The notes under the pieces: model-generated
What the model was told of the DNA's origin: nothing
Database searches by the model: none
What the model saw: the letters and a program-made list of their open reading frames with translations, nothing else
Made by a program: the position numbers and the translations under genes
Part shown: piece after piece, positions 7,244-18,766 of the stretch
Numbering within the stretch: position 1 is the stretch's first letter
Layout of the letters: each line of letters begins with the position of its first letter
Assembly: GCA_022843095.1 (NCBI GenBank)
Contig: JALHOH010000002.1
Location: 450,001-482,000 of the forward strand
Length of the DNA stretch: 32,000 nt
Direction of reading: 5' to 3'
DNA from: Candidatus Saccharimonadota bacterium
GTDB lineage: Bacteria > Patescibacteriota > Patescibacteriia > 2-12-FULL-60-25

Positions 7244-8251
7244 ATGGACACCTCTGCATTTGACTATTATCTCCCAACCGAGCGCATTGCGCAAAATCCT
7301 GCAAATCCACGAGAATCTGCTCGGCTTTTGGTTATGAATCGCAAGACGGATGTCCTGCAAGACCGTACCATCGCAGATCTTCCAGACCTTTTGTCGCCGG
7401 GCGATTTGCTGGTTTTTAATGATAGCAAGGTGTTTAAGGCCCGTCTCCACGCGACCCGCGAAACCACAACGTTCGAGGTGTTTCTCTTGCGACCCGTCGA
7501 ACACACGACGCAGTGGATCGCGTTGCTGCAACCCGCACGAAAACTCTCACCCGAAGACACCCTCGTCTTGGCAGACGGAACGACGGTCACCCTTCACGAA
7601 AAACGATCCGACGGAACCTGTGTGCTTGAGACGCATCGCTCTGCAGACGCGATGTTCGCGGTATGTGACACCTATGGCGAGGTCCCGACCCCGCCCTACG
7701 TCGAGCAAGGGACCGATCTGAACGCCTACCAAACAGCCTACGCAAAAACAACAGGAAGCGTGGCAGCCCCAACGGCGGGGCTGCATTTTACCCCTGCGCT
7801 CTTGGATACCCTAGAAAAACGCGGCGTCCAGCGCGTGTTTGTGACGTTGCACGTAGGACTTGGCACCTTCCGCCCCATGAAAACAGACACACTGGAAGCG
7901 CACGTGATGCACGAAGAATGGGCGCACGTTTCACAAGAAACATTGGATGCGATCACCGCAACGCGGGCACGAGGCGGACGCGTCATCGCGGTCGGAACGA
8001 CCACGGTACGCGCGCTGGAAAGCGCCTGTGGAACCCCGTTTTCGGGATACACACGGCTCTTCATTACCCCTGGACACACTTTCACTTCCTTTGATGCGCT
8101 CATCACTAATTTCCACCTCCCAAAATCCACCCTCCTCGTGCTCGTGTCCGCATTTGCCGGCCGTGAACGCACCCTAAACACCTACCAACACGCGATCGAT
8201 CAGGGATACCGCTTTTACAGTTTTGGCGATGCGATGTTGATTACGTCGTAA
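7244..8251 (+). CDS. queA: S-adenosylmethionine:tRNA ribosyltransferase-isomerase
   Basis: Start chosen at MDTSAFDYYLPTERIAQNPANPRESARLLV, the canonical QueA N-terminus. Other QueA motifs are PPYV, AAPTAGLHFT, HVGLGTF, GGRVIAVGTT and FYSFGDAMLI. Confidence 0.92.
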   Translation: MDTSAFDYYLPTERIAQNPANPRESARLLVMNRKTDVLQDRTIADLPDLLSPGDLLVFNDSKVFKARLHATRETTTFEVFLLRPVEHTTQWIALLQPARKLSPEDTLVLADGTTVTLHEKRSDGTCVLETHRSADAMFAVCDTYGEVPTPPYVEQGTDLNAYQTAYAKTTGSVAAPTAGLHFTPALLDTLEKRGVQRVFVTLHVGLGTFRPMKTDTLEAHVMHEEWAHVSQETLDAITATRARGGRVIAVGTTTVRALESACGTPFSGYTRLFITPGHTFTSFDALITNFHLPKSTLLVLVSAFAGRERTLNTYQHAIDQGYRFYSFGDAMLITS

Positions 8252-9461
8252 CATGATACGCCTCCAGGACTGTTCGGAGATGCGCCTCCCAGGTATGGCG
8301 TTCGTGAATCCGTGCGCGTCCTTCGCGCCCCATCGCATCACGCACCTCTTTGGGCGCAGCTAAAAACCGGCGCAGGTTGCGCACCCAATCATCAACATCA
8401 CCAGGCGTCACCAAATACCCGTTCTCGCCATCTGTCACAAGCTCCGGATTCCCTCCAATCCGTGTGGCAAGACAAGGGATCCCGTCCGCCATCGCCTCAA
8501 GGAGAGATCCGCTGCAGTTTTCGTACATGAGCGTTGGCAGGAGCACCGCCTCGGCACGCGCACGCACGCGAGCTAATTCCGCCGGCGGAAGAAATCCCAC
8601 AAACTCAAGATTCGTGGCGCCTAATTGGTCCGCAAGTGTGCGTAATGCAGATTCTTCCGGTCCACGTCCAACGAACTTTACCGGCAATTCTGGAATCCGC
8701 GCCGCCGCTTCCACAAACGATCGAAGTCCTTTTTCGGCAGACAATCGTCCGGCATACAGCACATACCCCCCTCCGCGTGGCGCAGGAGCCGCAGGAAACG
8801 CCGTAGGATTTGGCGCATAGGTGAGTTTTCCCGGCGGCTGTCCCCAATCCTCCATCTTTTCACGCATGAACTTTGAAGGACACAAAAACGTCTGCACCGT
8901 TTTTTCATAGGAAAGACGCGTTTTTGCGAGCCCCATCTCCAACGCAGCAAGGACATTTGGCAGAAGCGCTTCGTTTACGCACCGATACCGCACGACATTG
9001 CGATAATCTCCCGTTTTACACCGTTCACAGGGTGCACCTTGCGTGTACATTTTGTAGTTCGCGCATCCGACCACTTTATAATCATGCAACGTCTGGACGC
9101 AGCGGATCCCTCGTTTTCGAATGGGCGCCAAAACCGAGGTCGAAAGATGGTTGTAGATATTGTGCAAATGCACCACGTCCGGCTTGATGCGATCCAAGAG
9201 CTCCGCCATCGCGCGACGCGCCTCCAAATTCCAAAGGTAATTCGCAGCAATCACGGCATCCGTACCGAGCCCATGGCGCTTGCCCAAATCATATCGCGTC
9301 ACAAATGCACCGGCATCCGCGCTTGCCAGATTCTTTTCTGAAGTCGTGGAAAACGCATGGACTTCATGTCCTGCTTCACGTTGTTTCTGCATGAGCTCGT
9401 GCATGTACACCTCTGCACCGCCATGGAGATCAAAAAACTTGTTTACGTGGAGGATTCGCAT
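8241..9461 (-). CDS. glycosyltransferase family 4 (GT-B)
   Basis: N-terminus MRILHVNKFFDLHGGAEVY. The C-terminal half has the EX7E-like region (PTLMYENCSGSLLEAMADGIPCLATRIGGNPELV). A Cys-rich insertion (C..C-x2-C ... C) is present. Confidence 0.85.
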   Translation of the reverse strand: MRILHVNKFFDLHGGAEVYMHELMQKQREAGHEVHAFSTTSEKNLASADAGAFVTRYDLGKRHGLGTDAVIAANYLWNLEARRAMAELLDRIKPDVVHLHNIYNHLSTSVLAPIRKRGIRCVQTLHDYKVVGCANYKMYTQGAPCERCKTGDYRNVVRYRCVNEALLPNVLAALEMGLAKTRLSYEKTVQTFLCPSKFMREKMEDWGQPPGKLTYAPNPTAFPAAPAPRGGGYVLYAGRLSAEKGLRSFVEAAARIPELPVKFVGRGPEESALRTLADQLGATNLEFVGFLPPAELARVRARAEAVLLPTLMYENCSGSLLEAMADGIPCLATRIGGNPELVTDGENGYLVTPGDVDDWVRNLRRFLAAPKEVRDAMGREGRARIHERHTWEAHLRTVLEAYHVTT

Positions 9462-10525
9462 ACTTCGCCGTACACACGCGCATACGCCTGCGCCATGGTC
9501 CCAAGAGAAAACCGCTCGCGCACAATCCGCTGCGCCCGCTTTGCCTTCTCTATTGCCCGTGCCGGGTCATCCAGAGACTGTGCAATCGCGGCCGACCATC
9601 CCGCCACATCGTCCGGCGCGACAAAGGTGGTTGAATCTTCGGTAAACGTCTCGTGCAACACCGGAAGATCCGAAGCGATCGTTGGAACACCCGAGGCCAT
9701 CCCTTCGAGCAATACGAGCCCCTGGCCCTCTTCACGCGACGGAAACAGGAGCAGATCGACATCGGGAAGGAGCGGTGCGATATCCGGTACCGCTCCAACA
9801 AATCGGACGCGCGGCAAGATACCCAACGTCTGCGCAAGCGCCCGCAAACGGTCCTCCTCGGGCCCCTCCCCGATCACGGTGAGCGTCCAGGGACGTTTCA
9901 CCTGGGCACACGCGCGAAAGACCGTCGCAAAGTTCTTACTGGGAACCAATCGGCCGATCACGGCACAACGCGGGATATCCCGGCGCCCCTGCGGACGCGA
10001 TGCGATAAATCGGGAAAGATCGATGCCTAAGCGCACAACCCCCGTCTGCGCCTCAGTCAACCCATACCGCTTGATTGCGAGCGTGCGCAATTCTTCCGAA
10101 ATTGCGAGGACCCGATGTGCGCGTCGATAACATCTCCCACGAAGATATGAACGGATTACCCCGTCTTCCGGCATATGGCTATGAATCGTCGAAATCCAGG
10201 GATAACGCCGGTCCCGCAGCGCCGCGATCCCTCCCCAAACATCCATGCCAAGATGTGTGTGCAACACCTCAGCGCGTGTTCGGCGCATGTGCTCGGAAAT
10301 CCAACCGGATAACGCAAGCCGTCGGTACGATCCGCCGATCGAAGGCGCCACCGCAACCGAGACACCCGTCGCACGAAACGCCGCCTCCAATTCTCCGCCC
10401 ACCGCCGCGGCGACGGAAGGGATCACGCCAAACGTCGGAAGCGTCCGACAAAGATCCAAGAGCATCCGCTCGGCGCCCCCCAAACCCAGCGACCACGTCG
10501 TGAGCAAAACGCGTTTAGACGTCAT
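9443..10525 (-). CDS. glycosyltransferase family 4 (GT-B)
   Basis: N-terminus RVLLTTWSLGLGGAERMLLDL. The C-terminal region reads FPSREEGQGLVLLEGMASGVPTIASD. It overlaps both neighbours by 11-19 nt, which indicates an operon. Confidence 0.85.
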   Translation of the reverse strand: MTSKRVLLTTWSLGLGGAERMLLDLCRTLPTFGVIPSVAAAVGGELEAAFRATGVSVAVAPSIGGSYRRLALSGWISEHMRRTRAEVLHTHLGMDVWGGIAALRDRRYPWISTIHSHMPEDGVIRSYLRGRCYRRAHRVLAISEELRTLAIKRYGLTEAQTGVVRLGIDLSRFIASRPQGRRDIPRCAVIGRLVPSKNFATVFRACAQVKRPWTLTVIGEGPEEDRLRALAQTLGILPRVRFVGAVPDIAPLLPDVDLLLFPSREEGQGLVLLEGMASGVPTIASDLPVLHETFTEDSTTFVAPDDVAGWSAAIAQSLDDPARAIEKAKRAQRIVRERFSLGTMAQAYARVYGEVCESST

Positions 10526-11954
10526 AGGAGGTCAAAAAATCCGGATCGCGTTGGACTTGCTTAGCAAAGAAAAACTGTCCGGCCGCCAGCGCGATCCCGA
10601 CCGGCAACCACCAACGAGCTGTCCAATATGTTGTATCAAACACCTGATACACCGACATCGCGATCACGCCAGCAAGTAAATAGGCAAACGCCGTCCGTTC
10701 GGGGGTCCCAACGATCATCCGCCGCCACTGCTTCCAAAACAACCAGAACCCATTTGCAACAACACCAAGCAAGGCAAGGAGTCCCACGATTCCGGTCTCG
10801 GCTCCCACCTTTTGCAGAACACCATGCGCATCAATCGGCGCTCCAAATTCGATGGTGTACGCATACGTCGAAGCCACATGCGACAGGAATGTTCCCGCCC
10901 CGACCCCGATCCATGGACTTTGTTGAAACACATGCCAGGCGATTTCGTTCACCATCTGCCGCGTGTCTGTGGATCCGCGCACACCGGGAGTAAAAAACGA
11001 TTGCACCAAAAGGAACGCGAACGGCGCAAGCAAAAACGCTGCGTACACCAACAGATCCGTTCGGGAACGGAGATAGGCGCGCCAGATGGTTGCCATCAAA
11101 AACACGCATCCGATCCCCAGCGCGAGCCATGCACTGCGCGCAAGAGTCAAAAGCGCAACCACGGCCATAAATGCCGCCCCAACATACGCCACGGCACGGG
11201 CACGTTCGACGCGCACGAGCGATGCAAACGCCATCGCTGCAGCTGCAGCAAAAATCAACACTTCCGCCAACGCATTATGATTCCCTCCCAATAAATTCAC
11301 CCCACCCAACACGAGAGGACGCGCTCGGTGGATCGTAAAGAGTCCCCCTTCAAACACAAACAGAGACGCGAATCCGTTCATGGCAAAATACGCCCCAATG
11401 ACGGCAATCACGCCAAGCACGACCAATAGTCGTTTCCGCGCATGAATAAAGTTTACCGGGATGAGCACGCAGGTCAGGTACACCAATAACACGGGACGAA
11501 ACGCATATTTGATGACAGCCGCTGCAGAGGGCTCGGTTGCAGATAAAAGCGACAACACATGCGCAGCAACGAGTCCCACCACGGAAAACAGCAGCGGCGC
11601 TTCCGGTTTCCAGTGCCAATCACGTCTGCCACGCCAAAGCGTCAACATGCGAATCCCCCACGCGACAAGCAACATGGCCGCCAACGCCTCGGAAACCTGA
11701 ATATCAATGGAACCCCGCACAATATCCGACACAAACAGGAACTGACCGGCGGGAATAGACACCTGCCAACCCAGCAAAAGCGATGTTCCCACAAATGCGT
11801 ACAACGCCGCATACGGAAAACGCAACACCAAGCCAAACACAATCGCGCCGATCACGGTCACAATCAGCGGCGCGCCTGCTCCAAACGCAGCGGCAAACGA
11901 CGTTCCGATCACGACAAGCAACGCCCCCCACCAAATACGCGGGAGCGATGCCAT
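10515..11954 (-). CDS. O-antigen ligase/polymerase-like (Wzy_C family) polytopic membrane protein
   Basis: About 10-12 predicted TM helices with a large loop carrying the H/R-containing Wzy_C-like region (LARSAWLALGIG...). The start is uncertain. I chose ATG at 11954 (MASLPRIWWGALL); the ORF track starts at GTG 12047. Confidence 0.72.
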   Translation of the reverse strand: MASLPRIWWGALLVVIGTSFAAAFGAGAPLIVTVIGAIVFGLVLRFPYAALYAFVGTSLLLGWQVSIPAGQFLFVSDIVRGSIDIQVSEALAAMLLVAWGIRMLTLWRGRRDWHWKPEAPLLFSVVGLVAAHVLSLLSATEPSAAAVIKYAFRPVLLVYLTCVLIPVNFIHARKRLLVVLGVIAVIGAYFAMNGFASLFVFEGGLFTIHRARPLVLGGVNLLGGNHNALAEVLIFAAAAAMAFASLVRVERARAVAYVGAAFMAVVALLTLARSAWLALGIGCVFLMATIWRAYLRSRTDLLVYAAFLLAPFAFLLVQSFFTPGVRGSTDTRQMVNEIAWHVFQQSPWIGVGAGTFLSHVASTYAYTIEFGAPIDAHGVLQKVGAETGIVGLLALLGVVANGFWLFWKQWRRMIVGTPERTAFAYLLAGVIAMSVYQVFDTTYWTARWWLPVGIALAAGQFFFAKQVQRDPDFLTSYDV

Positions 11955-12136
11955 CCAACCAACGCGAGTCGCCAGTGCCTCCACAAAAGAAGTGTACCAC
12001 AGCCCAAGTGCGTGCAAGCGTTTTCGCAACGATATTCCACAAGGCACACCCGGCGCACAATTTGATGGGATCCATGATCAGACAAGCGACGTTGAACTCG
12101 TCCTCATCTACCGGACAAACTAAAAACGCAGGCAAC

Positions 12137-12166
12137 AGAAAACCCCCGCACCAGTTGGTGCGGGGG
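12137..12166 (-). terminator. rho-independent terminator after lipoprotein A
   Basis: 10-bp GC stem cccccgcacc/ggtgcggggg (12143-12152 / 12157-12166) with a 4-nt loop. On the minus strand TTTTCTGTT follows. The plus-strand side is also T-rich (tgttgtttt). Confidence 0.7.
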
Positions 12167-12181
12167 TGTTGTTTTGAACGA

Positions 12182-13879
12182 TTACGGCGTGATACGCGTG
12201 CCGTCCGGGCACTGGCCACGGTACCAGCGCTCGATCGGCACCGCGAGCCGGATGAACTGCGGGTTCATCCGCGTCGGGTCCGAGTAGATGTCACGGCAGA
12301 CCCCGGTCTGCATCGTGATGTCCTCCATCCCCATGGTGACGGAAGAAATGCCCGCCGTCGTCGCGCTGCGGTGCAGGAACGGCGACCAATCGCGCTTCCC
12401 GGCACCGCAGTACGCGTCGACGATGAGCCATCCCGTCCACCAGGGCTGGACCGCGAGGTTGAGCGCGCCGCCCGGAGGAGCGTTGCGCTCGATCCCGCCA
12501 CTCCCCGCGACGGGCTCCCAGGCACGAAGCGTCCACCCGCTGGGGCAGGCGCCGAAGAGCGCGACGTTCGGAACGATCCGGAGGTCGTTGCACCCGACCG
12601 CGCCATCGCAGAACGACCCAGAAACGGGCACGTCCACGACCGCCGCATCCGCCATGGCGTCCGAGACGACGTCCGCAGACGCATCCATGGACGCCATCGC
12701 GTCTACGACATCGGCGGTCACGTCCGGAGACGCGTCCGCCATCGCATCCGCGGTGGCATCGACTCCGGCTTCCCGCACGTCAGCGACGTCTGCCGCGACG
12801 TCGGGCGCCGCATCCGGCATCACGTCCGCGACCGCGTCCATCCCGGCGTCTGCCACGACATCCGCCATCGCATCCGCTCCTGCCTCGCGCACGTCCGCCA
12901 CGACGTCCGGCTGCACATCCGCTGCCACGTCGGGCTGGACATCGGGCGAGGCATCCACCGCTGCTTCCGCCGCGGCATCCGTCCCCGCCTCGCGCACGTC
13001 CGGCGCATCCGCCTGGACATCCGACGTAGCGTCCGTCGCCATCATCCCGTCTGCCGGCGTCATCGCATCCACGACACCCGCGTCTCCGATCGGCGCCATG
13101 CACGCCAGAACCGCGAAGCAGAGCGTCGAACCCGCGCAGTAATCCGCGCAGGTCATGAGCCCGACGTTGTTGCAGCGATCCAGGCAGAGCAACGGCTGCG
13201 TCGGCAGCACGCACGGGCATCCGGAACGCGCCGCATCCGTCGTGGGAATGACGACGTCCGGAGGTACGACGACGTCGGCCGCCATCATGGCGTCCGCACC
13301 CGCATCCATCGGCATCGCCGCGTCCGCAGGCACCACCACGTCCATCGCCGGAGCGCTGTCCATCATGGCAACGTCCGCGCCGACATCCGCCATGGCATCC
13401 GCCGGGGTCATCGCGTCCGAAGATGCGTCCGCGACCGGCATCCCCGCATCTCCGCATCCGAGCGAGATCGGCTGGCACGAAGACCAGACGTTCATGCCCG
13501 GAAGGCAGATCTGCGCGACGACACAGGTCGCCGTGCTCGCCGCGCACGTCCGCGGTCCATCGACCGCCGCGTTGCAGGGCGAACCGGCCGGGACCTCCAT
13601 CGGCATGCATGCCGAGGCGGCGCGCACATCCGTAGGCAGACAGCGCGACCACCCGAACGATCCGGTCGACGGATCGCGCAAGCAGACGCTGACGCCCTCG
13701 GTGTTGCAGGCGGCCACGCAGGTGGTGGTCCGCCCCTCGTTCGCCATCCCGCACATCCCAGCATCAGCCGGCGGCGGGGTGGTGATCCCCCCATCCGGCG
13801 AACCGGACGGGAAGGGAAAAATGCAGCCGCTCATCCCCATGATGAGCGCGCAGACCAGAACCCAGTACGCGTGTCGCAT
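12182..13879 (-). CDS. secreted Cys-rich lipoprotein A (565 aa) with acidic D/A/V/M low-complexity linkers and the shared C-terminal RG[QR]CP domain
   Basis: Start ATG 13879 is preceded by AAGGAGGAACCA (SD AGGAGG, 5-nt spacer). The signal peptide has a lipobox-like motif: MRHAYWVLVCALIMGMSGC. The C-terminal ~145 aa align with the C-termini of the products of 14129-15706 and 15893-16360. Confidence 0.8.
   Translation of the reverse strand: MRHAYWVLVCALIMGMSGCIFPFPSGSPDGGITTPPPADAGMCGMANEGRTTTCVAACNTEGVSVCLRDPSTGSFGWSRCLPTDVRAASACMPMEVPAGSPCNAAVDGPRTCAASTATCVVAQICLPGMNVWSSCQPISLGCGDAGMPVADASSDAMTPADAMADVGADVAMMDSAPAMDVVVPADAAMPMDAGADAMMAADVVVPPDVVIPTTDAARSGCPCVLPTQPLLCLDRCNNVGLMTCADYCAGSTLCFAVLACMAPIGDAGVVDAMTPADGMMATDATSDVQADAPDVREAGTDAAAEAAVDASPDVQPDVAADVQPDVVADVREAGADAMADVVADAGMDAVADVMPDAAPDVAADVADVREAGVDATADAMADASPDVTADVVDAMASMDASADVVSDAMADAAVVDVPVSGSFCDGAVGCNDLRIVPNVALFGACPSGWTLRAWEPVAGSGGIERNAPPGGALNLAVQPWWTGWLIVDAYCGAGKRDWSPFLHRSATTAGISSVTMGMEDITMQTGVCRDIYSDPTRMNPQFIRLAVPIERWYRGQCPDGTRITP
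12626..13087 (-). repeat. low-complexity acidic repeat region (aa 265-418 of lipoprotein A); three imperfect ~35-38-aa units each starting DVREAG
   Basis: The translation shows DVREAGTDAAAEAAVDASPDVQPDVAADVQPDVVA / DVREAGADAMADVVADAGMDAVADVMPDAAPDVAADVA / DVREAGVDATADAMADASPDVTADVV.... A second D/A/M/V tract lies at 13232-13453. Confidence 0.7.
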
Positions 13880-13957
13880 TGGTTCCTCCTTGTGCGACGG
13901 GTTGGTGAGGCAACGTGCCTCGTTTTCGTTCGTCCTTCTGTGAATGAACGTGCGCTG

Positions 13958-13986
13958 ACCGTAGGCAAAAATGGCAAAAAAGTCAA
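13958..13986 (-). promoter_or_regulatory. putative sigma70-like promoter for lipoprotein A
   Basis: Minus strand reads TTGACT, then 17 nt, then TACGGT. The -35 is good and the -10 is weak (3/6). It lies between the terminator-like hairpin of gene B and the start of gene A. Confidence 0.3.
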
Positions 13987-14020
13987 GGGTCCCCTGCCAA
14001 TTTTTACGCTCAGACAATAA

Positions 14021-14064
14021 GAAAACCGGCGCACCCCCCTGTTTGTGACAGGCGGATACGCCGG
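14021..14064 (-). terminator. probable terminator after lipoprotein B
   Basis: Minus strand reads gCCGGCGtatccgCCTGTcacaaACAGGggggtgCGCCGGTTTTCTTATT. This is a nested stem followed by a T-rich tail, 65 nt after the stop at 14129. Confidence 0.4.
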
Positions 14065-14128
14065 CAAGCGATTGATTCTTCGTAGAATCAGCGGATTTTC
14101 GTGGAGATTCCGCACACTCCGAGATAGT

Positions 14129-15706
14129 TCAGGGGCAGCGGCCGCGGAACGTGGCGTCGAGCGGTGCAAGTGGACGATTGAATCCGCCCCACGTGCACAC
14201 CCGACCCGCATCACTACGCAGCTCTTCGCCTTCCCAGGTCATAGAAGCGATGCCGGCCTCCGAAACTGGACGCCCCTGGAGCGAAGCGGGCCAGGTCACC
14301 CAACGCGCAGATCCAAGATCGGACCCGCAGCGGACGGCGACCGCAGCCACGCCACGCCACGACTCGGGAAGGACCTCCCGGAAGGGCTGCCCCGCGACCG
14401 AATCCCGACGCTCACCGCCAGGACCGAAGACGGAAGTGATCCAGCCCGAGGCACACACACCACAGTTGGTGCAGTTCCCCGGGACATTGAACCACGCGAC
14501 GTCCGATGCGATGCGCAGCTCTCGGGCGACGCCCACCGGCGTTCCGCCCGAGCACCCTTCGTCGATGCTCCCGTCGCAGTCGTCGTCGATACCGTTGCCG
14601 CACACCTCTGCGACCGGCGTTCCCGTCGTGCAGACGTTGAGGGCACCGGCGACGCATCGATCCACGACCCGACGGCAGGCGCCAACGCCGCACTCGGTGG
14701 TGCCGAGCAGTTCGTCGGTCATTCCGTCACAGTCGTCGTCGCGACCGTTGCAGGTCTCTGCCACAGGCGTGCAGGTCGGCGTGGTAGCCGGGCAGGTCGC
14801 GACGATCCCGTCGCAGTTCTCGTCCACGGCATTGCCGCAGACTTCCGCCCCCGTGGGGACGCACGGCGCGGGGCACCCTTCGTCGATGCTCCCGTCGCAG
14901 TCGTCGTCCTGCCCGTTCGAGCAGATCTCCGCGACCGGGGTTCCGGCTACACAGATGTTCGGACCACCCGAAACACACATAGAGACCGTTCGGATACAGC
15001 GGCCAACGCCACAGGTGACATTCCCTTCATCGGTCTGGCCGTCGCAGTCGTCATCGCGACCGTTACACACCTCCGCGGCCGGGATGCACGCGGGCATCAC
15101 CGGACACATCGTGGCAACGCCGTCGCAGTTCTCGTCCACGGCATTGCCGCAGACTTCGGGCGACGAAGGACCGGGAACACACGTCACCGTCCCCTCGCAC
15201 CCCTCGACCTGGCGCTGGCATGCGCCGACGCCGCAAGTAATGCGGACACGGGCGCACACAGCGTCGGTCGGGATGATGACGTCCGTTACCGGAGCGACGT
15301 CAGAGCCATCCGCCGCATCGGTCACAACATCCGCTGACGCGTCCGCTGCACCGCTGCAGGCGCCGGCGACGCAGGTCTGACCCGCGTTGCAGGCGCGCCG
15401 ACACGCACCGCAGTGCGCGACATCCGTCTGCGTGTTCACGCAGGCGCCGCCGCAGGTCGTTTGCCCCTCGGCGCAGGCGCCGGGGACAGATGCCTCCGTC
15501 GGAATCGCGTCCGTTTCCACGGACGCCTCGCGCACCGGAACCGGCGTCACCGCCGTGTCCGGGATCGCATCCCCCACCGCGCCCTCACGGGCAACGGCGG
15601 CATCGGAGAGACGAGCCGCGTCCGTGGAATCGATCAACGACTCCACGTGGCAGCCCGCCAGAACGAGAACCATCGCGGCCAACAGGCCGCACATCCACTG
15701 CTTCAT
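14129..15706 (-). CDS. secreted Cys-rich lipoprotein B (525 aa) with six MopE-like CxxxDDDCDGxxDE motifs and the shared C-terminal RG[QR]CP domain
   Basis: ATG 15706 is preceded by GGGAGGAGAGTTCG. The lipoprotein signal is MKQWMCGLLAAMVLVLAGC (canonical LAGC lipobox). The N-terminal region has a CGGACVNTQTDVAHCGACRRACNAGQTCVAGAC motif. Repeat motifs include EVCNGRDDDCDGQTDEG, EICSNGQDDDCDGSIDEGC and EVCGNAVDENCDG. Confidence 0.85.
   Translation of the reverse strand: MKQWMCGLLAAMVLVLAGCHVESLIDSTDAARLSDAAVAREGAVGDAIPDTAVTPVPVREASVETDAIPTEASVPGACAEGQTTCGGACVNTQTDVAHCGACRRACNAGQTCVAGACSGAADASADVVTDAADGSDVAPVTDVIIPTDAVCARVRITCGVGACQRQVEGCEGTVTCVPGPSSPEVCGNAVDENCDGVATMCPVMPACIPAAEVCNGRDDDCDGQTDEGNVTCGVGRCIRTVSMCVSGGPNICVAGTPVAEICSNGQDDDCDGSIDEGCPAPCVPTGAEVCGNAVDENCDGIVATCPATTPTCTPVAETCNGRDDDCDGMTDELLGTTECGVGACRRVVDRCVAGALNVCTTGTPVAEVCGNGIDDDCDGSIDEGCSGGTPVGVARELRIASDVAWFNVPGNCTNCGVCASGWITSVFGPGGERRDSVAGQPFREVLPESWRGVAAVAVRCGSDLGSARWVTWPASLQGRPVSEAGIASMTWEGEELRSDAGRVCTWGGFNRPLAPLDATFRGRCP
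14549..15157 (-). repeat. intragenic tandem duplication, 2 x ~312 nt (2 x 104 aa), each copy carrying three MopE-like motifs
   Basis: The exact 37-nt string cgtcgcagttctcgtccacggcattgccgcagacttc occurs at 14809-14845 and 15121-15157, an offset of 312 nt. The protein copies aa 184-287 and 288-386 are collinear. Confidence 0.85.
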
Positions 15707-15798
15707 CGAACTCTCCTCCCGGGCTATGCCCGGATTGTTGAAAAATGAACCGAATTCACGAGAAAATCCGTGGTTACGGCTTTCGATCGTGACAAGAG

Positions 15799-15827
15799 AA
15801 TATAGCAGCTTTTTCCGATTTTGTCAA
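15799..15827 (-). promoter_or_regulatory. putative sigma70-like promoter for lipoprotein B
   Basis: Minus strand reads TTGACA (15827-15822), a 17-nt spacer, then TATATT (15804-15799). This is 6/6 and 5/6 matches to consensus. It lies just downstream of the gene C terminator and ~90 nt upstream of ATG 15706. Confidence 0.55.
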
Positions 15828-15839
15828 GCGTCGCTAGAC

Positions 15840-15867
15840 AAAAAAACCGCTTCCAGGACAGAAGCGG
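15840..15867 (-). terminator. rho-independent terminator after lipoprotein C
   Basis: Minus strand reads CCGCTTCtgtcctgGAAGCGG followed by TTTTTTT. It starts 26 nt after the stop at 15893. Confidence 0.75.
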
Positions 15868-15892
15868 GTGCGTCGAATCAGACGCGGAAACT

Positions 15893-16360
15893 TCAGGGGC
15901 AACGCCCCTCGTTGGTGGTGACGAGCCCGACCAGCGGACGGACCACGGTTCCCCAGGCCGGAGGCGCCCAGGGGTCCACGCAGAAGCGCGTGACGCCGGT
16001 CGTGTCGCGACCGCGGAATCGGACGCTGACGCCGCCATCTCCGGCCGTGCGCCCCAGCATCCCCTGGCCCCAACGGTGCCAGTCCGTCCCGCACCGCGCG
16101 CCAACCGCAGCGTACCCACGCCATCCCTCGTCCGTCTCCAGGCGGACGGTGCCGGAACGCTGGCTAAGCTCGACCCCACCCGGGCCGAACACGACCGCCT
16201 CCCATCCCCCAGCGCACGGGGGAAGGGCGCCCAAATTGAGCGAAACGACGAGGGTATTCGGGCCCTCGGTGGCCACCGGCTGCATGGCCGGCGGGGTGTT
16301 CAGGGACTCGACATGGCAGCCCAGCATGAGCGCCACGCAGACAAAAAAGGTGCGTCGCAT
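15893..16360 (-). CDS. small lipoprotein C (155 aa): signal peptide plus the shared C-terminal RG[QR]CP domain only
   Basis: ATG 16360 is preceded by GTAGGAGGTTTCG (GGAGG, 5-nt spacer). The signal is MRRTFFVCVALMLGC, followed by HVESL exactly as in protein B. The rest aligns with the C-terminal domains of A and B. Confidence 0.8.
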   Translation of the reverse strand: MRRTFFVCVALMLGCHVESLNTPPAMQPVATEGPNTLVVSLNLGALPPCAGGWEAVVFGPGGVELSQRSGTVRLETDEGWRGYAAVGARCGTDWHRWGQGMLGRTAGDGGVSVRFRGRDTTGVTRFCVDPWAPPAWGTVVRPLVGLVTTNEGRCP

Positions 16361-16378
16361 CGAAACCTCCTACGCCGT

Positions 16379-16407
16379 GGAGTACCGCATTTCCTGGATT
16401 TGGTCAA
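16379..16407 (-). promoter_or_regulatory. putative promoter for lipoprotein C
   Basis: Minus strand reads TTGACC, then 17 nt, then TACTCC. The -10 is weak (3/6). It would give a very short leader containing the SD. Confidence 0.25.
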
Positions 16408-16583
16408 CCCCTCCCTTGACAGCTCCCTCGCTTTCTGATGTTCTGACACGTCCGACACAACGGACCCGGCTGCGCACTCGCGCGTGCCCGGACGGTTCGT
16501 TTCTACACAAGAAACAAGGCGAGGCGTCCGGAAGGCGCGCGGGGTGAGCTCGGCCGGTCATCACTGACCCCGAGGAGGCTCTC

Positions 16584-16814
16584 ATGCATACTCGTTTGCA
16601 TCGTAGCGACGATATGAACCCGCAGGCCGCGCACTCCGTGGCTTGCCTTCCGCAACCCACGCTCGAGCTGCTCACGCCGCACGGTTCCATGCCGGACACG
16701 CGCTTGAACACTCTGACCAAGCTCATCTGCGGCTACCAAGGCTGCAGCCACAACGCCCCGCCAATCCCCTTCCGCGCCCCCTCGCGTCTCCGGACGCGCT
16801 GGACGCTGAACTGA
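16584..16814 (+). CDS. hypothetical small protein (76 aa), divergent from lipoprotein C
   Basis: ATG 16584 is preceded by GAGGAGG with a 5-nt spacer. The stop at 16812-16814 is followed 6 nt later by a strong plus-strand terminator. Third codon positions are GC-rich. I recognised no family; there are 3 Cys and no signal peptide. Confidence 0.4.
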   Translation: MHTRLHRSDDMNPQAAHSVACLPQPTLELLTPHGSMPDTRLNTLTKLICGYQGCSHNAPPIPFRAPSRLRTRWTLN

Positions 16815-16820
16815 CGCGCA

Positions 16821-16847
16821 CGCCGACCATCTCTGGTCGGCGTTTTT
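16821..16847 (+). terminator. rho-independent terminator (plus strand)
   Basis: CGCCGACCAtctcTGGTCGGCG followed by TTTTT. Orientation is clear: the T-run is on the plus strand only. It sits 3 nt from the stop of the convergent TrmB-like gene. Confidence 0.7.
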
Positions 16848-16849
16848 CG

Positions 16850-17635
16850 TTATCCGCGTTGTTTTCCCCATCCTGGCGGTGGTTCCCAAGGACGTGCGCC
16901 CGTCCACGCCAATTGAAACAACGCTTTCATGAGCTCCGCGATCTCGACACTTTCGATAACAAGCCCAATGCCAATCGACTTCAGACTCATCGCGTACACA
17001 CGCTTGTCCGTGATCGCCAAATTCCCCGAAAACGGGAACGACTGATACGGAACGACGCGCACATCCACGACCGATGTATCAAAATACCGTGGCTGCAACC
17101 CCGGCTTAATTGCCATGAGTGCGCGCCCCCGCATGCGACTGGTCAACTGAATACGCTCGTCTTCACGCACGGCGGCGAGTTCAAGCATCGGCTCATCCAC
17201 GGCAAAAAACTCCCACAATTCCCCCGGCGTTCCGGCAATTTCCCGTCGAATTTCCCCGATTGCGGCTTCCCCTTCAAAAAACCGCACCTTCGGCTTGTCC
17301 GATGCGTTGTTGTAGATCGCAAGAAGTCTAGGCAACGCAAGTTCGAGTCGTGCTTTTTTTGCATCCACCTTGGACAGCTCGCGCGTGATGATTGAAAGGA
17401 GACGTTGTGGCGTTTCCGCGGCGAATAACGTCTTTTTTCCCTTTTCAAACGTCGTCACAAGCCCATGTCTGGACAGTGCCTCGATCATCACATAGCAGGT
17501 GGTACGATTCACGCCCGATTTTTTACCAATCTCCTGGATGCTCGTCGGCCCAAGCTCAAGCATCGCCATGTACACGTCGATTTCTTTCCCGGATAACCCA
17601 AGCTCCGTCAAACTGGTTTTGATGTCATCGATCAT
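16850..17635 (-). CDS. TrmB-family-like HTH transcriptional regulator
   Basis: The N-terminal winged-HTH pattern is LTELGLSGKEIDVYMAMLELGPTSIQEIGKKSGVNRTTCYVMIEALSRHGLV. It is followed by a ~180-aa C-terminal domain. This is the last gene of the long minus-strand operon. Confidence 0.75.
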   Translation of the reverse strand: MIDDIKTSLTELGLSGKEIDVYMAMLELGPTSIQEIGKKSGVNRTTCYVMIEALSRHGLVTTFEKGKKTLFAAETPQRLLSIITRELSKVDAKKARLELALPRLLAIYNNASDKPKVRFFEGEAAIGEIRREIAGTPGELWEFFAVDEPMLELAAVREDERIQLTSRMRGRALMAIKPGLQPRYFDTSVVDVRVVPYQSFPFSGNLAITDKRVYAMSLKSIGIGLVIESVEIAELMKALFQLAWTGARPWEPPPGWGKQRG

Positions 17636-17641
17636 AAAAAA

Positions 17642-18766
17642 TCACCATTGCGTCAAAAGCGGCAAGGTCTCCCGCGCTGTCCGTTCCCAGGTATACTGCT
17701 TCGCCCACGCGATCCCCGCCTCGCGACGCTCCAGCGCCCCGGCCGGATCATCTACGGCACGCGTGATCTGCTGCACCAGCGAATCGATGTCACGCGGATC
17801 AAACCAAAGAGCATGCGGTTCCCCCACGACCTCCGGGAGGGAGGCGATCCAGGAACAAATGACCTGCGTTCCACAGGCTAATGCCTCCAAAGGCGGGATC
17901 CCAAACCCCTCATACCATGCCGGATGCACAAGCGCTGTCGCACGATTCAAGAGCGCCGCCTTGTCGTCTTCGTTCACATACCCAAGCAGACGAATCTGCG
18001 ATTTGGCCGGCGACGCCGCAATCGCGGCCTCGATCTCCTCGAACCCAACGCCGGTAAGTCCCGCAAGCGCCAAATGCAACGGATCTCCTTCGCCACGTAA
18101 CTGCTTAAACCGCGTAAATGCCTCCACGATCATCTTCACGTTTTTCTTGCGTTCCAACCGACCGACGAACAAGAGGTACGGCTCTGGCAACCGGTACCTG
18201 TCCACGATCGGCGTCGCATCCGCTTTTGCGATGGGGCGATAGCGCGCATGATCGATCCCGTTTGGCGTCACAAAAATCTTGTCCGGATGCGCTCCATAAA
18301 ATTCGATGATCTCGCGCTTCGAAAACTCGGACACGGTCAAAATCCGTGATGCCCGCTTTACGATATCCTTGGTCGCCCAATCGTGATACCAGCGCTGAAT
18401 CGGCTTGTAGAGTTCGGGTAATCGCGCAAACCCGACGTCATGAATCGTCACGACAGAACGTGCTGGGATGGCGCGCGGCAAAACATGCGCCGGCACATAC
18501 AACACATCCGGCGGACTGCGATACATTTCCCAAGACAGGCGCGTCTGCGTCCACAAATATTTCGGCGGCCAAGCAAGTCGCATCTCATGCCAATTCTTCG
18601 GCCCTTTTTCGAGCCCCATCATGAGCGGCTCGTTGGAATACAACAACCACGAATGCGCGTCTGATTCGGCAAACTGCTTGAGTTGCTGAATCACATGCCA
18701 CGCATACCACTCAACCCCCGTCTTTTCACGGCGGTTGGCGCGGGAAGCCTCAATCCCGATAAGCAT
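17642..18766 (-). CDS. glycosyltransferase family 4 (GT-B)
   Basis: N-terminus MLIGIEASRANRREKTGVEWY. The C-terminal region reads HPAWYEGFGIPPLEALACGTQVICS, typical of GT4/GT1-type mannosyl/glucosyltransferases. Confidence 0.85.
   Translation of the reverse strand: MLIGIEASRANRREKTGVEWYAWHVIQQLKQFAESDAHSWLLYSNEPLMMGLEKGPKNWHEMRLAWPPKYLWTQTRLSWEMYRSPPDVLYVPAHVLPRAIPARSVVTIHDVGFARLPELYKPIQRWYHDWATKDIVKRASRILTVSEFSKREIIEFYGAHPDKIFVTPNGIDHARYRPIAKADATPIVDRYRLPEPYLLFVGRLERKKNVKMIVEAFTRFKQLRGEGDPLHLALAGLTGVGFEEIEAAIAASPAKSQIRLLGYVNEDDKAALLNRATALVHPAWYEGFGIPPLEALACGTQVICSWIASLPEVVGEPHALWFDPRDIDSLVQQITRAVDDPAGALERREAGIAWAKQYTWERTARETLPLLTQW

Follow-up and report, generated by a model that had tools for sequence, protein, structure and literature searches.

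Within a 32-kb window of bacterial DNA (contig JALHOH010000002.1, positions 450,001 to 482,000; "the window" refers to this whole stretch of 32,000 nucleotides) lies a block, at window positions 12167-16821, with a GC content of 66.7% against 55.5% in the rest of the window. The block, also called the island below, encodes three tandem cysteine-rich predicted lipoproteins, named here P1, P2 and P3, and a divergent small open reading frame (ORF), P4, between genes for a Wzy_C (O-antigen-ligase-like) membrane protein and a TrmB-family regulator. Such a break in composition raises the question of whether the block is a foreign insert, as a preliminary description had proposed in calling it a horizontally acquired cassette, or belongs to the lineage that carries it. 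Comparison with related loci favours the latter. The block is quite likely an inherited locus of the lineage rather than a recent insert. With rather less confidence, it is read as the form taken in this genome by a variable locus of surface lipoproteins that is fixed in a sub-clade of Candidatus Uhrbacteria and lies between TrmB and the Wzy_C/glycosyltransferase cluster.

The locus in related genomes

Judged from its sequence, the window belongs to a Candidatus Uhrbacteria-like bacterium within the Candidate Phyla Radiation (CPR). Among GTDB contigs with one genome per species, relatives of its MreB come from Candidatus Uhrbacteria and related Patescibacteria at 72–92% identity, and the gene order GT2-GT2-DUF4012-MreB-GT4-TrmB is kept across ~80 loci. 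Relatives of the locus itself were taken from GTDB loci and from 80 metagenome loci found by a scan with an alignment of TrmB orthologs; TrmB alone as the query retrieved none, and the TrmB of the closest relative is 53% identical. Seventeen loci contain both TrmB (39–53% identity) and Wzy (35–45%), representing at least 15 distinct sequences (L006/L093 and L097/L099 look like duplicates). All 17 have a gap of 2.0–6.7 kb filled with same-strand Cys-rich lipoprotein genes. The preliminary description had raised the prospect of relatives in which the flanking operons adjoin, yet TrmB lies directly beside Wzy in none of the 17, leaving no empty junction.

The composition recurs along with the position. 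In 16 of the 17 loci the richest 1 kb of the gap has a GC content of 0.65–0.71, compared to 0.47–0.56 in the flanks. The GTDB loci L006 and L011 have gaps of 4.8 and 2.6 kb with 65–70% GC on a background of ~0.50–0.51, occupied by same-strand Cys-rich lipoprotein genes with DAG-type acidic repeats. L007, L009, and L014 show the same beginning of the locus before the contig ends. As the locus, its composition and its synteny largely recur across the lineage, the recent-transfer reading fails on the terms of the preliminary description itself.

P2 has positional counterparts in L091, L092, L095, L097/L099, L100, L106, and L117, with tblastn identities of 30–40%. This divergence is close to that of the flanking TrmB and Wzy. 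The counterparts examined carry a lipobox, three to six MopE repeats and an acidic linker, and the P2-type C-terminal domain is nearly full length in L092, L097/L099, and L100 (iterated hidden Markov model (HMM) search, E ~1e-14). The order of the window is also found in L170, a short contig from another sample, where a gene for a full-length P3 relative (P0123) is followed by a P2-like gene. L171, a CPR-type contig from the same sample as L170, has a P1-like gene among GC-rich genes for secreted proteins. Stalk modules differ elsewhere, with thrombospondin type-3 repeats in the L112 counterpart and collagen repeats in that of L119.

In more distant Uhrbacteria (TrmB 33–37% identical), TrmB is likewise followed by a GC-rich segment, which contains opposite-strand ORFans (L020 14040-16567, L025 14793-15590, L028 14115-17063, L032 15298-18387, L035 13891-15165, L050 14022-15838). 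The GC content at third codon positions (GC3) of these ORFans is 0.72–0.96, against a locus-median gene GC3 of 0.32–0.53 (L025 0.69). They show no homology among themselves and match nothing in Pfam or PHROG, and a holB-like gene comes next in at least L020, L028, L032, and L050. For AT-richer relatives, an rRNA operon was considered as the origin of the GC-rich segments downstream of TrmB, and was rejected when Rfam found nothing. Many of the GTDB records with CPR-type order (within L003–L082) are titled 'uncultured Gammaproteobacteria bacterium' (binchicken third-party annotation (TPA) assemblies), a label that is probably wrong.

Genes, composition and origin of the block

The features of the locus are as follows; SD denotes a Shine-Dalgarno sequence.

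12182-13879, minus strand: P1, predicted lipoprotein, 565 aa counted from the SD-preceded ATG (the longest ORF would start at TTG 14017)
14129-15706, minus strand: P2, predicted lipoprotein, 525 aa (ORF and translation)
15893-16360, minus strand: P3, predicted lipoprotein, 155 aa (ORF and translation)
16584-16814, plus strand: P4, 76 codons, divergent from P3 and convergent with TrmB, with its own SD and terminator
16850-17635, minus strand: TrmB-family regulator (Pfam PF01978), anchors the locus upstream and stays next to the lipoprotein block in relatives
10515-12047, minus strand: Wzy_C (O-antigen-ligase-like) membrane protein (Pfam PF04932), downstream anchor, followed by two GT4 glycosyltransferases, its position kept in relatives
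15827-15799, minus strand: promoter-like site upstream of P2 (TTGACA, 17 nt, TATATT, with TG; 11/12 consensus positions)
12142-12167, both strands: terminator-like hairpin past the P1 stop codon, left border (11-bp stem, 9 GC pairs, T-runs on either strand)
13972-13999, minus strand: terminator-like hairpin after P2
15847-15867, minus strand: terminator-like hairpin after P3
16820-16843, plus strand: terminator-like hairpin after P4, right border

The ORFs and translations bear out the four genes described earlier, three tandem on the minus strand and one divergent ORF of 76 codons. All four genes of the island begin with an ATG that lies 5–8 nt after a GGAGG. None of 20 other starts in the window does so, these being assumed longest-ORF starts; the remaining GGAGG sites fall inside genes. 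On these assumed starts, the earlier observation that this canonical SD sets the island genes apart from nearly every other gene in the window holds. The claim that the island has its own promoters and terminators stands in part, with a hairpin after every gene and a promoter-like site for P2 only. The region contains two promoter-like sites where 0.7 are expected from shuffles, and the near-consensus site is assigned to P2 alone. Taken together, the signals of P1–P3 appear monocistronic.

The compositional discontinuity claimed in the preliminary description is confirmed by scans of GC and tetranucleotides, although its size was overstated. Windows of 500 nt inside the block have a mean GC of 0.668 (sd 0.034, minimum 0.584), and those outside a mean of 0.555 (sd 0.028, maximum 0.638), a gap of ~4 sd. 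In tetranucleotides, the block correlates with the rest of the window at 0.76, and other 4-kb windows do so at 0.85–0.93. The background had been put at 42–55% GC but is ~55.5%, so that the jump amounts to ~11 points rather than ~20. GC3 is 0.834, 0.774, 0.827, and 0.805 in P1 to P4 respectively, and 0.48–0.67 in 20 other genes of the window. Many long ORFs are present in additional frames of the block, as had been described.

This high GC is a property of the coding sequences and not of a foreign block. The spacers between the island genes have a GC of 0.49–0.52, near or under the rest of the window. Host genes have a GC of 0.554, and the amino acids of the island combined with host codon usage give an expectation of 0.629, whereas 0.691 is observed; for GC3 the expected and observed values are 0.637 and 0.81. 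Hence, ~55% of the excess comes from amino-acid composition and ~45% from synonymous codon choice. The island proteins are rich in A, G, P, D, V, and C and poor in K, L, I, F, and Y. P1–P3 contain 6.6% Cys and 0.2% Lys, compared to 0.8% and 3.9% in other genes of the window; they are acidic, and nearly devoid of Tyr and His as well as Lys. The preferred codons are GAC, GTC, GGC, CTC, and TGC in the island and GAT, GTG, GGG, and TTG in the host. A C3-rich codon signature is common to the islands compared, and island GC3 is 0.76–0.87 in six genomes whose flanks have a GC3 of 0.47–0.75. With the single exception of L114, the positional counterparts examined in other genomes have this high GC3 regardless of genome GC.

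A relic of an old transfer should have ameliorated by now, which suggests that some process maintains the codon bias. A comparison of L097 with L100 offers a candidate. The two are related populations, 82–93% identical over the flanks and 92–100% in an island gene (L097 11659-14064; 500 nt fully identical), and a second block at 17.0–20.5 kb is ~100% identical. This mosaic indicates that inter-population recombination is active at the locus, and GC-biased gene conversion or repeated exchange would then be a reasonable explanation of the bias. Small lipoprotein-like genes with a GC3 above the locus median also occur elsewhere in related CPR loci (L062 4102-4731, plus strand, 0.81 vs 0.34; L018 10-663, minus strand, 0.66 vs 0.32; L039 2080-2958, minus strand, 0.85 vs 0.62). 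These hint that high GC3 may go with the class of gene and not with a single site.

It is conceivable that the block reached the clade's ancestor by an ancient transfer. In its fullest form, this history has the ancestor taking MopE-type genes from a high-GC lineage; homologous recombination through the conserved TrmB and Wzy flanks would since have swapped the locus among related populations, and biased conversion or repeated re-import would hold GC3 high. The myxobacterial affinities of some modules would fit such an origin, as would gene content that varies among genomes at a fixed site. The contrast in GC3 between islands and flanks is unexpected after long vertical descent under host mutation bias, and the identity pattern of L097 and L100 directly records that populations have recently recombined. 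However, the recombination tracts are not restricted to the island, and L114 carries the locus without high GC3. On balance this history is considered unlikely.

Recent acquisition of a 4.7-kb cassette from a high-GC donor (Myxococcota/Bdellovibrionota), inserted between two housekeeping operons, is very improbable. It would account for the discontinuity in GC and GC3, the lower tetranucleotide correlation, the GGAGG sequences seen on island genes only, and a qualitative codon shift from G/T-ending to C-ending that resembles high-GC bacteria. The best non-self matches of P2 also come from large-genome contexts and Myxococcota-named records, alongside a sub-threshold MXAN_6577-like match. Against these stand a site filled by the same kind of gene in every one of the related loci, positional orthologs of P2 roughly as diverged as the flanking genes, and in-island spacers without elevated GC. 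No close donor is found either, the best matches being 39–56% identical in the repeat region only.

Signs of mobility are similarly lacking, as the preliminary description had already observed. The window contains no tRNA, no integrase or transposase was found among the neighbours scanned with Pfam, and no repeats flank the island. Rfam has no match in the window. A prophage or mobile element was rejected, with no PHROG match for P1–P3 or for the GC-rich ORFans of relatives and no integrase, tRNA or att-like repeats. A diversity-generating retroelement target was also rejected, as no long near-identical repeat pair involves the C-terminal domains and no reverse transcriptase is present among the window ORFs scanned.

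Predicted lipoproteins with a common C-terminal domain

P1–P3 are predicted lipoproteins, with signal peptides and lipoboxes judged by eye and by regular expression. They are paralogs, with an N-terminal lipobox signal and the same C-terminal domain on either side of a variable spacer. The genes lgt and lspA do not lie within the 32-kb window, and no search aimed at either was made.

P1 begins with a signal peptide and the lipobox MSGC (aa 1-19, 13823-13879), followed by a Cys-rich N-terminal module (aa 43-142, 13454-13753), a low-complexity spacer of D, A, V, M, and P, and a second Cys module (aa 221-260, 13100-13219). An acidic spacer with imperfect 12-nt repeats (aa 261-423) then leads to the C-terminal four-Cys domain (aa ~424-558, 12206-12610; HMM match E=3.5e-36). 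P1 has no match in Pfam, NCBIfam or PHROG. P3 is minimal, comprising a signal peptide with the lipobox MLGC (16316-16360) and the C-terminal domain (15896-16261) with almost no spacer. The residues following the lipobox Cys are identical in P2 and P3 (CHVESL). For P3, a search of a word-indexed database of 5.8 billion proteins retrieved P3 alone.

P2 has a signal peptide with the canonical lipobox LAGC (15650-15706). A Cys-rich module of the Stig1/MXAN_6577-like kind follows (aa 77-176, 15179-15478), then six MopE-type repeats that form a two-fold duplication of ~105 aa (aa 186-385, 14552-15151; internal 321-nt repeat), and last the C-terminal domain (aa 393-525, 14132-14530). The repeats match PF11617 (Cu-binding_MopE) in six stretches with CNGRDDDCDG-type motifs (85.7 bits, cutoff 27); the Pfam scan gave no PF11617 match in P1, P3 or P4. 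The CxGxCV...C motif (aa 85-117) matches Stig1 (PF04885) with 33.7 bits, above a cutoff of 24.1, and aa 77-163 reach 39.3 bits with NF041328 (MXAN_6577-like Cys-rich), below its cutoff of 100. The module is related to NF041328 without P2 being a member. Both of the cysteine-rich and acidic motifs described earlier are present, and both in P2. The earlier suggestion that they are typical of Myxococcota-type bacteria finds support in PF11617, in the sub-threshold MXAN_6577 match and in named P2 matches that are mostly from Myxococcota.

Database searches with P2 return hundreds of proteins with the repeat, and the similarity is confined to the repeat region (33–68% of P2, 39–56% identity). The top matches come from non-CPR contexts and share the repeats only, while positional orthologs and C-terminal-domain relatives are found in Uhrbacteria and further CPR contigs. 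A MopE match named 'Patescibacteria' (P0100, L083/L084) was rejected as probably mis-binned, given its large-genome context (Ser/Thr kinase with TPR repeats, sulfatase). A sequence search of the PDB with P2 gave no significant match.

The C-terminal domain is ~120 aa in length, with four conserved Cys and a terminal G-x-C-P (alignment A2). When 1.84 billion representative proteins were searched exhaustively with a profile, the family proved to have only 58 members (alignment A3). The four Cys are invariant or near-invariant in both alignments, and the match ends a few residues from the protein C-terminus in most members. Word-indexed protein searches are nearly blind to this family, the 27-sequence domain alignment having retrieved only P0148. 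No relatives are present in Pfam or NCBIfam, and none are significant in the PDB by sequence or profile. An AlphaFold2 model built with A3 is all-beta and confident (predicted local distance difference test (pLDDT) score 95.6, predicted template modelling (pTM) score 0.88), and predicts a compact beta-sandwich. Foldseek finds nothing significant in the PDB (best E=0.038, template modelling (TM) scores 0.29–0.41) and nothing under E=0.1 in BFVD. The best PDB matches, C2 domains (E=0.04) and CBM60/36 (TM 0.35–0.41), are both non-significant and do not place the domain in either type. P2 is a new MopE-motif protein, and its tip domain is in none of the libraries searched (Pfam, NCBIfam, PDB, BFVD).

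All ten of the longer family members examined have the domain placed after a hydrolase, which is Peptidase_M23 in eight, GH25 in one and a C39-like enzyme in one; six of these proteins had detectable MopE motifs as well. The member at L089 2025-3953 is a GH25 fusion in an ordinary high-GC genome with a surrounding GC3 of ~0.9. That at L087 10001-13465 combines M23 with six MopE stretches, and its 260-kb contig comes from a 0.1-um filter fraction of groundwater. These two members indicate that the domain is not confined to Uhrbacteria.

P4 is a conserved small ORF of the locus and no orphan. Its GC at the three codon positions (0.58/0.55/0.81) fits a coding frame. Similar ORFs of 58–78 codons, on the minus strand in each case, occur in L006 (13433-13630; also L093), L095 (10893-11069), and L007 (13448-13684), in the same place just 3' of TrmB and on the opposite strand to it, with a common MN[SR]Q start. 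The C-terminus CGTPGCSGF[ND]DQWGR[KR]LSCPG[YF] is common to the L095 and L007 ORFs and more diverged in L006; P4 retains CGYQGCS and then diverges. The ATG follows an SD in both the window and L006. P4 and its kin have no Pfam match and none above threshold in NCBIfam. These ORFs resemble a leader plus core peptide and have a RiPP-like appearance. A conserved non-coding RNA just 3' of TrmB was rejected, as the alignment is poor except at the small ORF itself.

Possible function and significance

The proposed mechanism begins with P1–P3 anchored by lipid in the cell membrane. A stiff stalk, stabilised by disulfides and probably by Ca2+, would hold the C-terminal domain away from the cell. The spacer differs by protein, consisting of the Stig1/MXAN_6577-like knot and six MopE repeats in P2 and two Cys modules with D/A/V/M/P tracts in P1, with P3 reduced to a minimum. 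The tip domain may bind a ligand of the cell envelope, because it is fused to M23, GH25, and C39-like hydrolases at the place where lysins carry wall-binding modules. The proteins could then act as adhesins toward a partner or host cell, or toward the organism's own wall. Since the organism probably relies on other cells, the most economical function would be to attach to a partner. An adhesin role is the most likely one for P1–P3, but is put forward tentatively, with slightly less than even confidence.

The neighbouring genes encode an ABC/MacB/HlyD exporter, QueA, GT4 enzymes, Wzy_C, TrmB, MreB, a DUF4012 protein and GT2 enzymes. The lipoprotein block sits between the Wzy_C and GT4 genes (8241-10525, 10515-12047) on one side and another GT4 gene (17642-18766) on the other. 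A sequence search of the PDB found no relative of the Wzy_C protein. CPR bacteria are generally regarded as having no outer membrane or lipopolysaccharide. PglL/WsaB-type Wzy_C enzymes O-glycosylate low-complexity regions of surface proteins. Adjacency and the presence of such linkers make the low-complexity linkers of the neighbouring lipoproteins candidate substrates for O-glycosylation by Wzy_C.

Several points weigh against the reading of the block as a fixed locus of surface adhesins. Most relatives' islands have no detectable similarity to P1–P3 beyond low complexity, and a direct comparison with the island proteins of L006, L011, L007, L009, and L014 yielded nothing further. Consequently 'same locus' is partly positional and architectural rather than strict orthology, and some genes may have been replaced non-homologously, possibly via transfer. 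A neighbour-joining tree pairs P1, P2, and P3 with different metagenomic proteins and not with the L092/L097 orthologs, although it is star-like and poorly resolved. L114 has lipoprotein genes without high GC3, its richest 1 kb being 0.54 against flanks of 0.41, and a lasting high GC3 would equally fit repeated import from high-GC donors. The lipoboxes of P1 (MSGC) and P3 (MLGC) fit the relaxed pattern only, that of P2 (VLVLAGC) being canonical. Finally, the binding role of the domain is guilt by domain fusion, with no significant structural neighbour (Foldseek E=0.04, TM ~0.3–0.4).

The preliminary description had suggested attachment or metal capture, of which the surface attachment role is plausible and metal capture found no specific support. 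That the MopE-type repeats bind copper or another metal, making the locus a metal-scavenging module, is scarcely probable. P2 is a strong match to a Pfam family that bears the name Cu-binding_MopE, and the motif has been aligned with the copper-binding region of MopE (PMC3278476). However, the motif is absent from P1 and P3, and no metal transporter or chaperone is present among the neighbourhood genes scanned. Counterparts carry thrombospondin type-3 or collagen repeats in place of MopE, a swap more in keeping with a structural stalk than with a metal site. Ca2+-binding structural repeats also typically show the acidic D-x-D-x-D-G pattern. A chimeric metagenome assembly joining a high-GC fragment to a CPR contig has a negligible probability. 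The composition jump does coincide with intergenic regions, but the same arrangement occurs in independent assemblies from many projects, P3 is reproduced exactly by a separate Logan assembly, and the borders fall at terminators beside intact flanking genes.

Known systems resemble parts of the locus. P2 is like the MopE/PF11617 proteins of Myxococcota and others in its six stretches and Cys-rich N-terminal knot; that family has neither the lipoprotein anchor nor the C-terminal four-Cys domain nor the fixed Uhrbacteria position, and P1 and P3 lack the repeat. We know of no function established for the PF11617 family beyond MopE of Methylococcus. Like the wall-binding modules of peptidoglycan hydrolases (for example SH3b of lysostaphin-type M23 enzymes, LysM and carbohydrate-binding modules (CBMs)), the tip domain stands C-terminally on M23, GH25 and C39-like enzymes, often past linker repeats, and it is modelled as a compact beta-sandwich. 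Unlike these modules, it has no sequence or significant structural similarity to solved domains, sits in the window on non-catalytic lipoproteins, and is a putative binder. Variable lipoprotein loci of small-genome parasites and the mycobacterial PE_PGRS proteins are surface or lipid-anchored, repetitive and of low complexity, with clustered paralogs, rapid divergence and a GC above that of the genome. There is no homology with these systems, and the genes in the window each have an ordinary SD and terminator-like hairpin, with a promoter-like site for P2 as well. No phase-variation switch (invertible promoter or homopolymer tract) was seen at the locus. The literature on CPR Cys-rich adhesins, Uhrbacteria islands and PF11617 yielded only tangential papers. 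Among CPR bacteria, a hypervariable surface gene of a Gracilibacterium encodes a membrane-anchored extracellular protein with low-complexity repeats and a proposed role in attachment (Sieber et al. 2019; PMC6851277). There, one gene carrying a PTD nonamer repeat varies within one population, and the genome has 29% GC (PMC6851277), whereas the Uhrbacteria locus is multi-gene, keeps its position across species, and is GC-rich with disulfide-rich modules.

The locus carries a caution for the calling of genomic islands, in that a strong anomaly of GC and codon usage, together with translation signals of its own, can be inherited stably with a class of genes and need not signal recent transfer. How high GC3 is maintained among genomes that differ widely in base composition is a small but genuine puzzle of genome evolution. 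Attachment by CPR/Patescibacteria is largely unknown in uncultured lineages such as Uhrbacteria, and this locus provides a concrete, positionally conserved candidate. It offers a recognisable architecture of lipid anchor, disulfide- and Ca-type stalk and conserved tip with a confidently modelled fold, and the hydrolase fusions of the tip domain make the binding hypothesis directly testable. A more speculative joint reading, judged improbable as a whole, holds that the C-terminal domain is an undescribed envelope-targeting domain used by CPR bacteria on hydrolases and on stalked adhesins engaging hosts, and that locus-specific GC-biased gene conversion keeps GC3 at ~0.8. If true, this would be an unusually clean bacterial case of GC-biased gene conversion, driven by inter-population recombination at a surface-antigen site, and the TrmB-Wzy locus would be a determinant of host specificity in this clade of Uhrbacteria.

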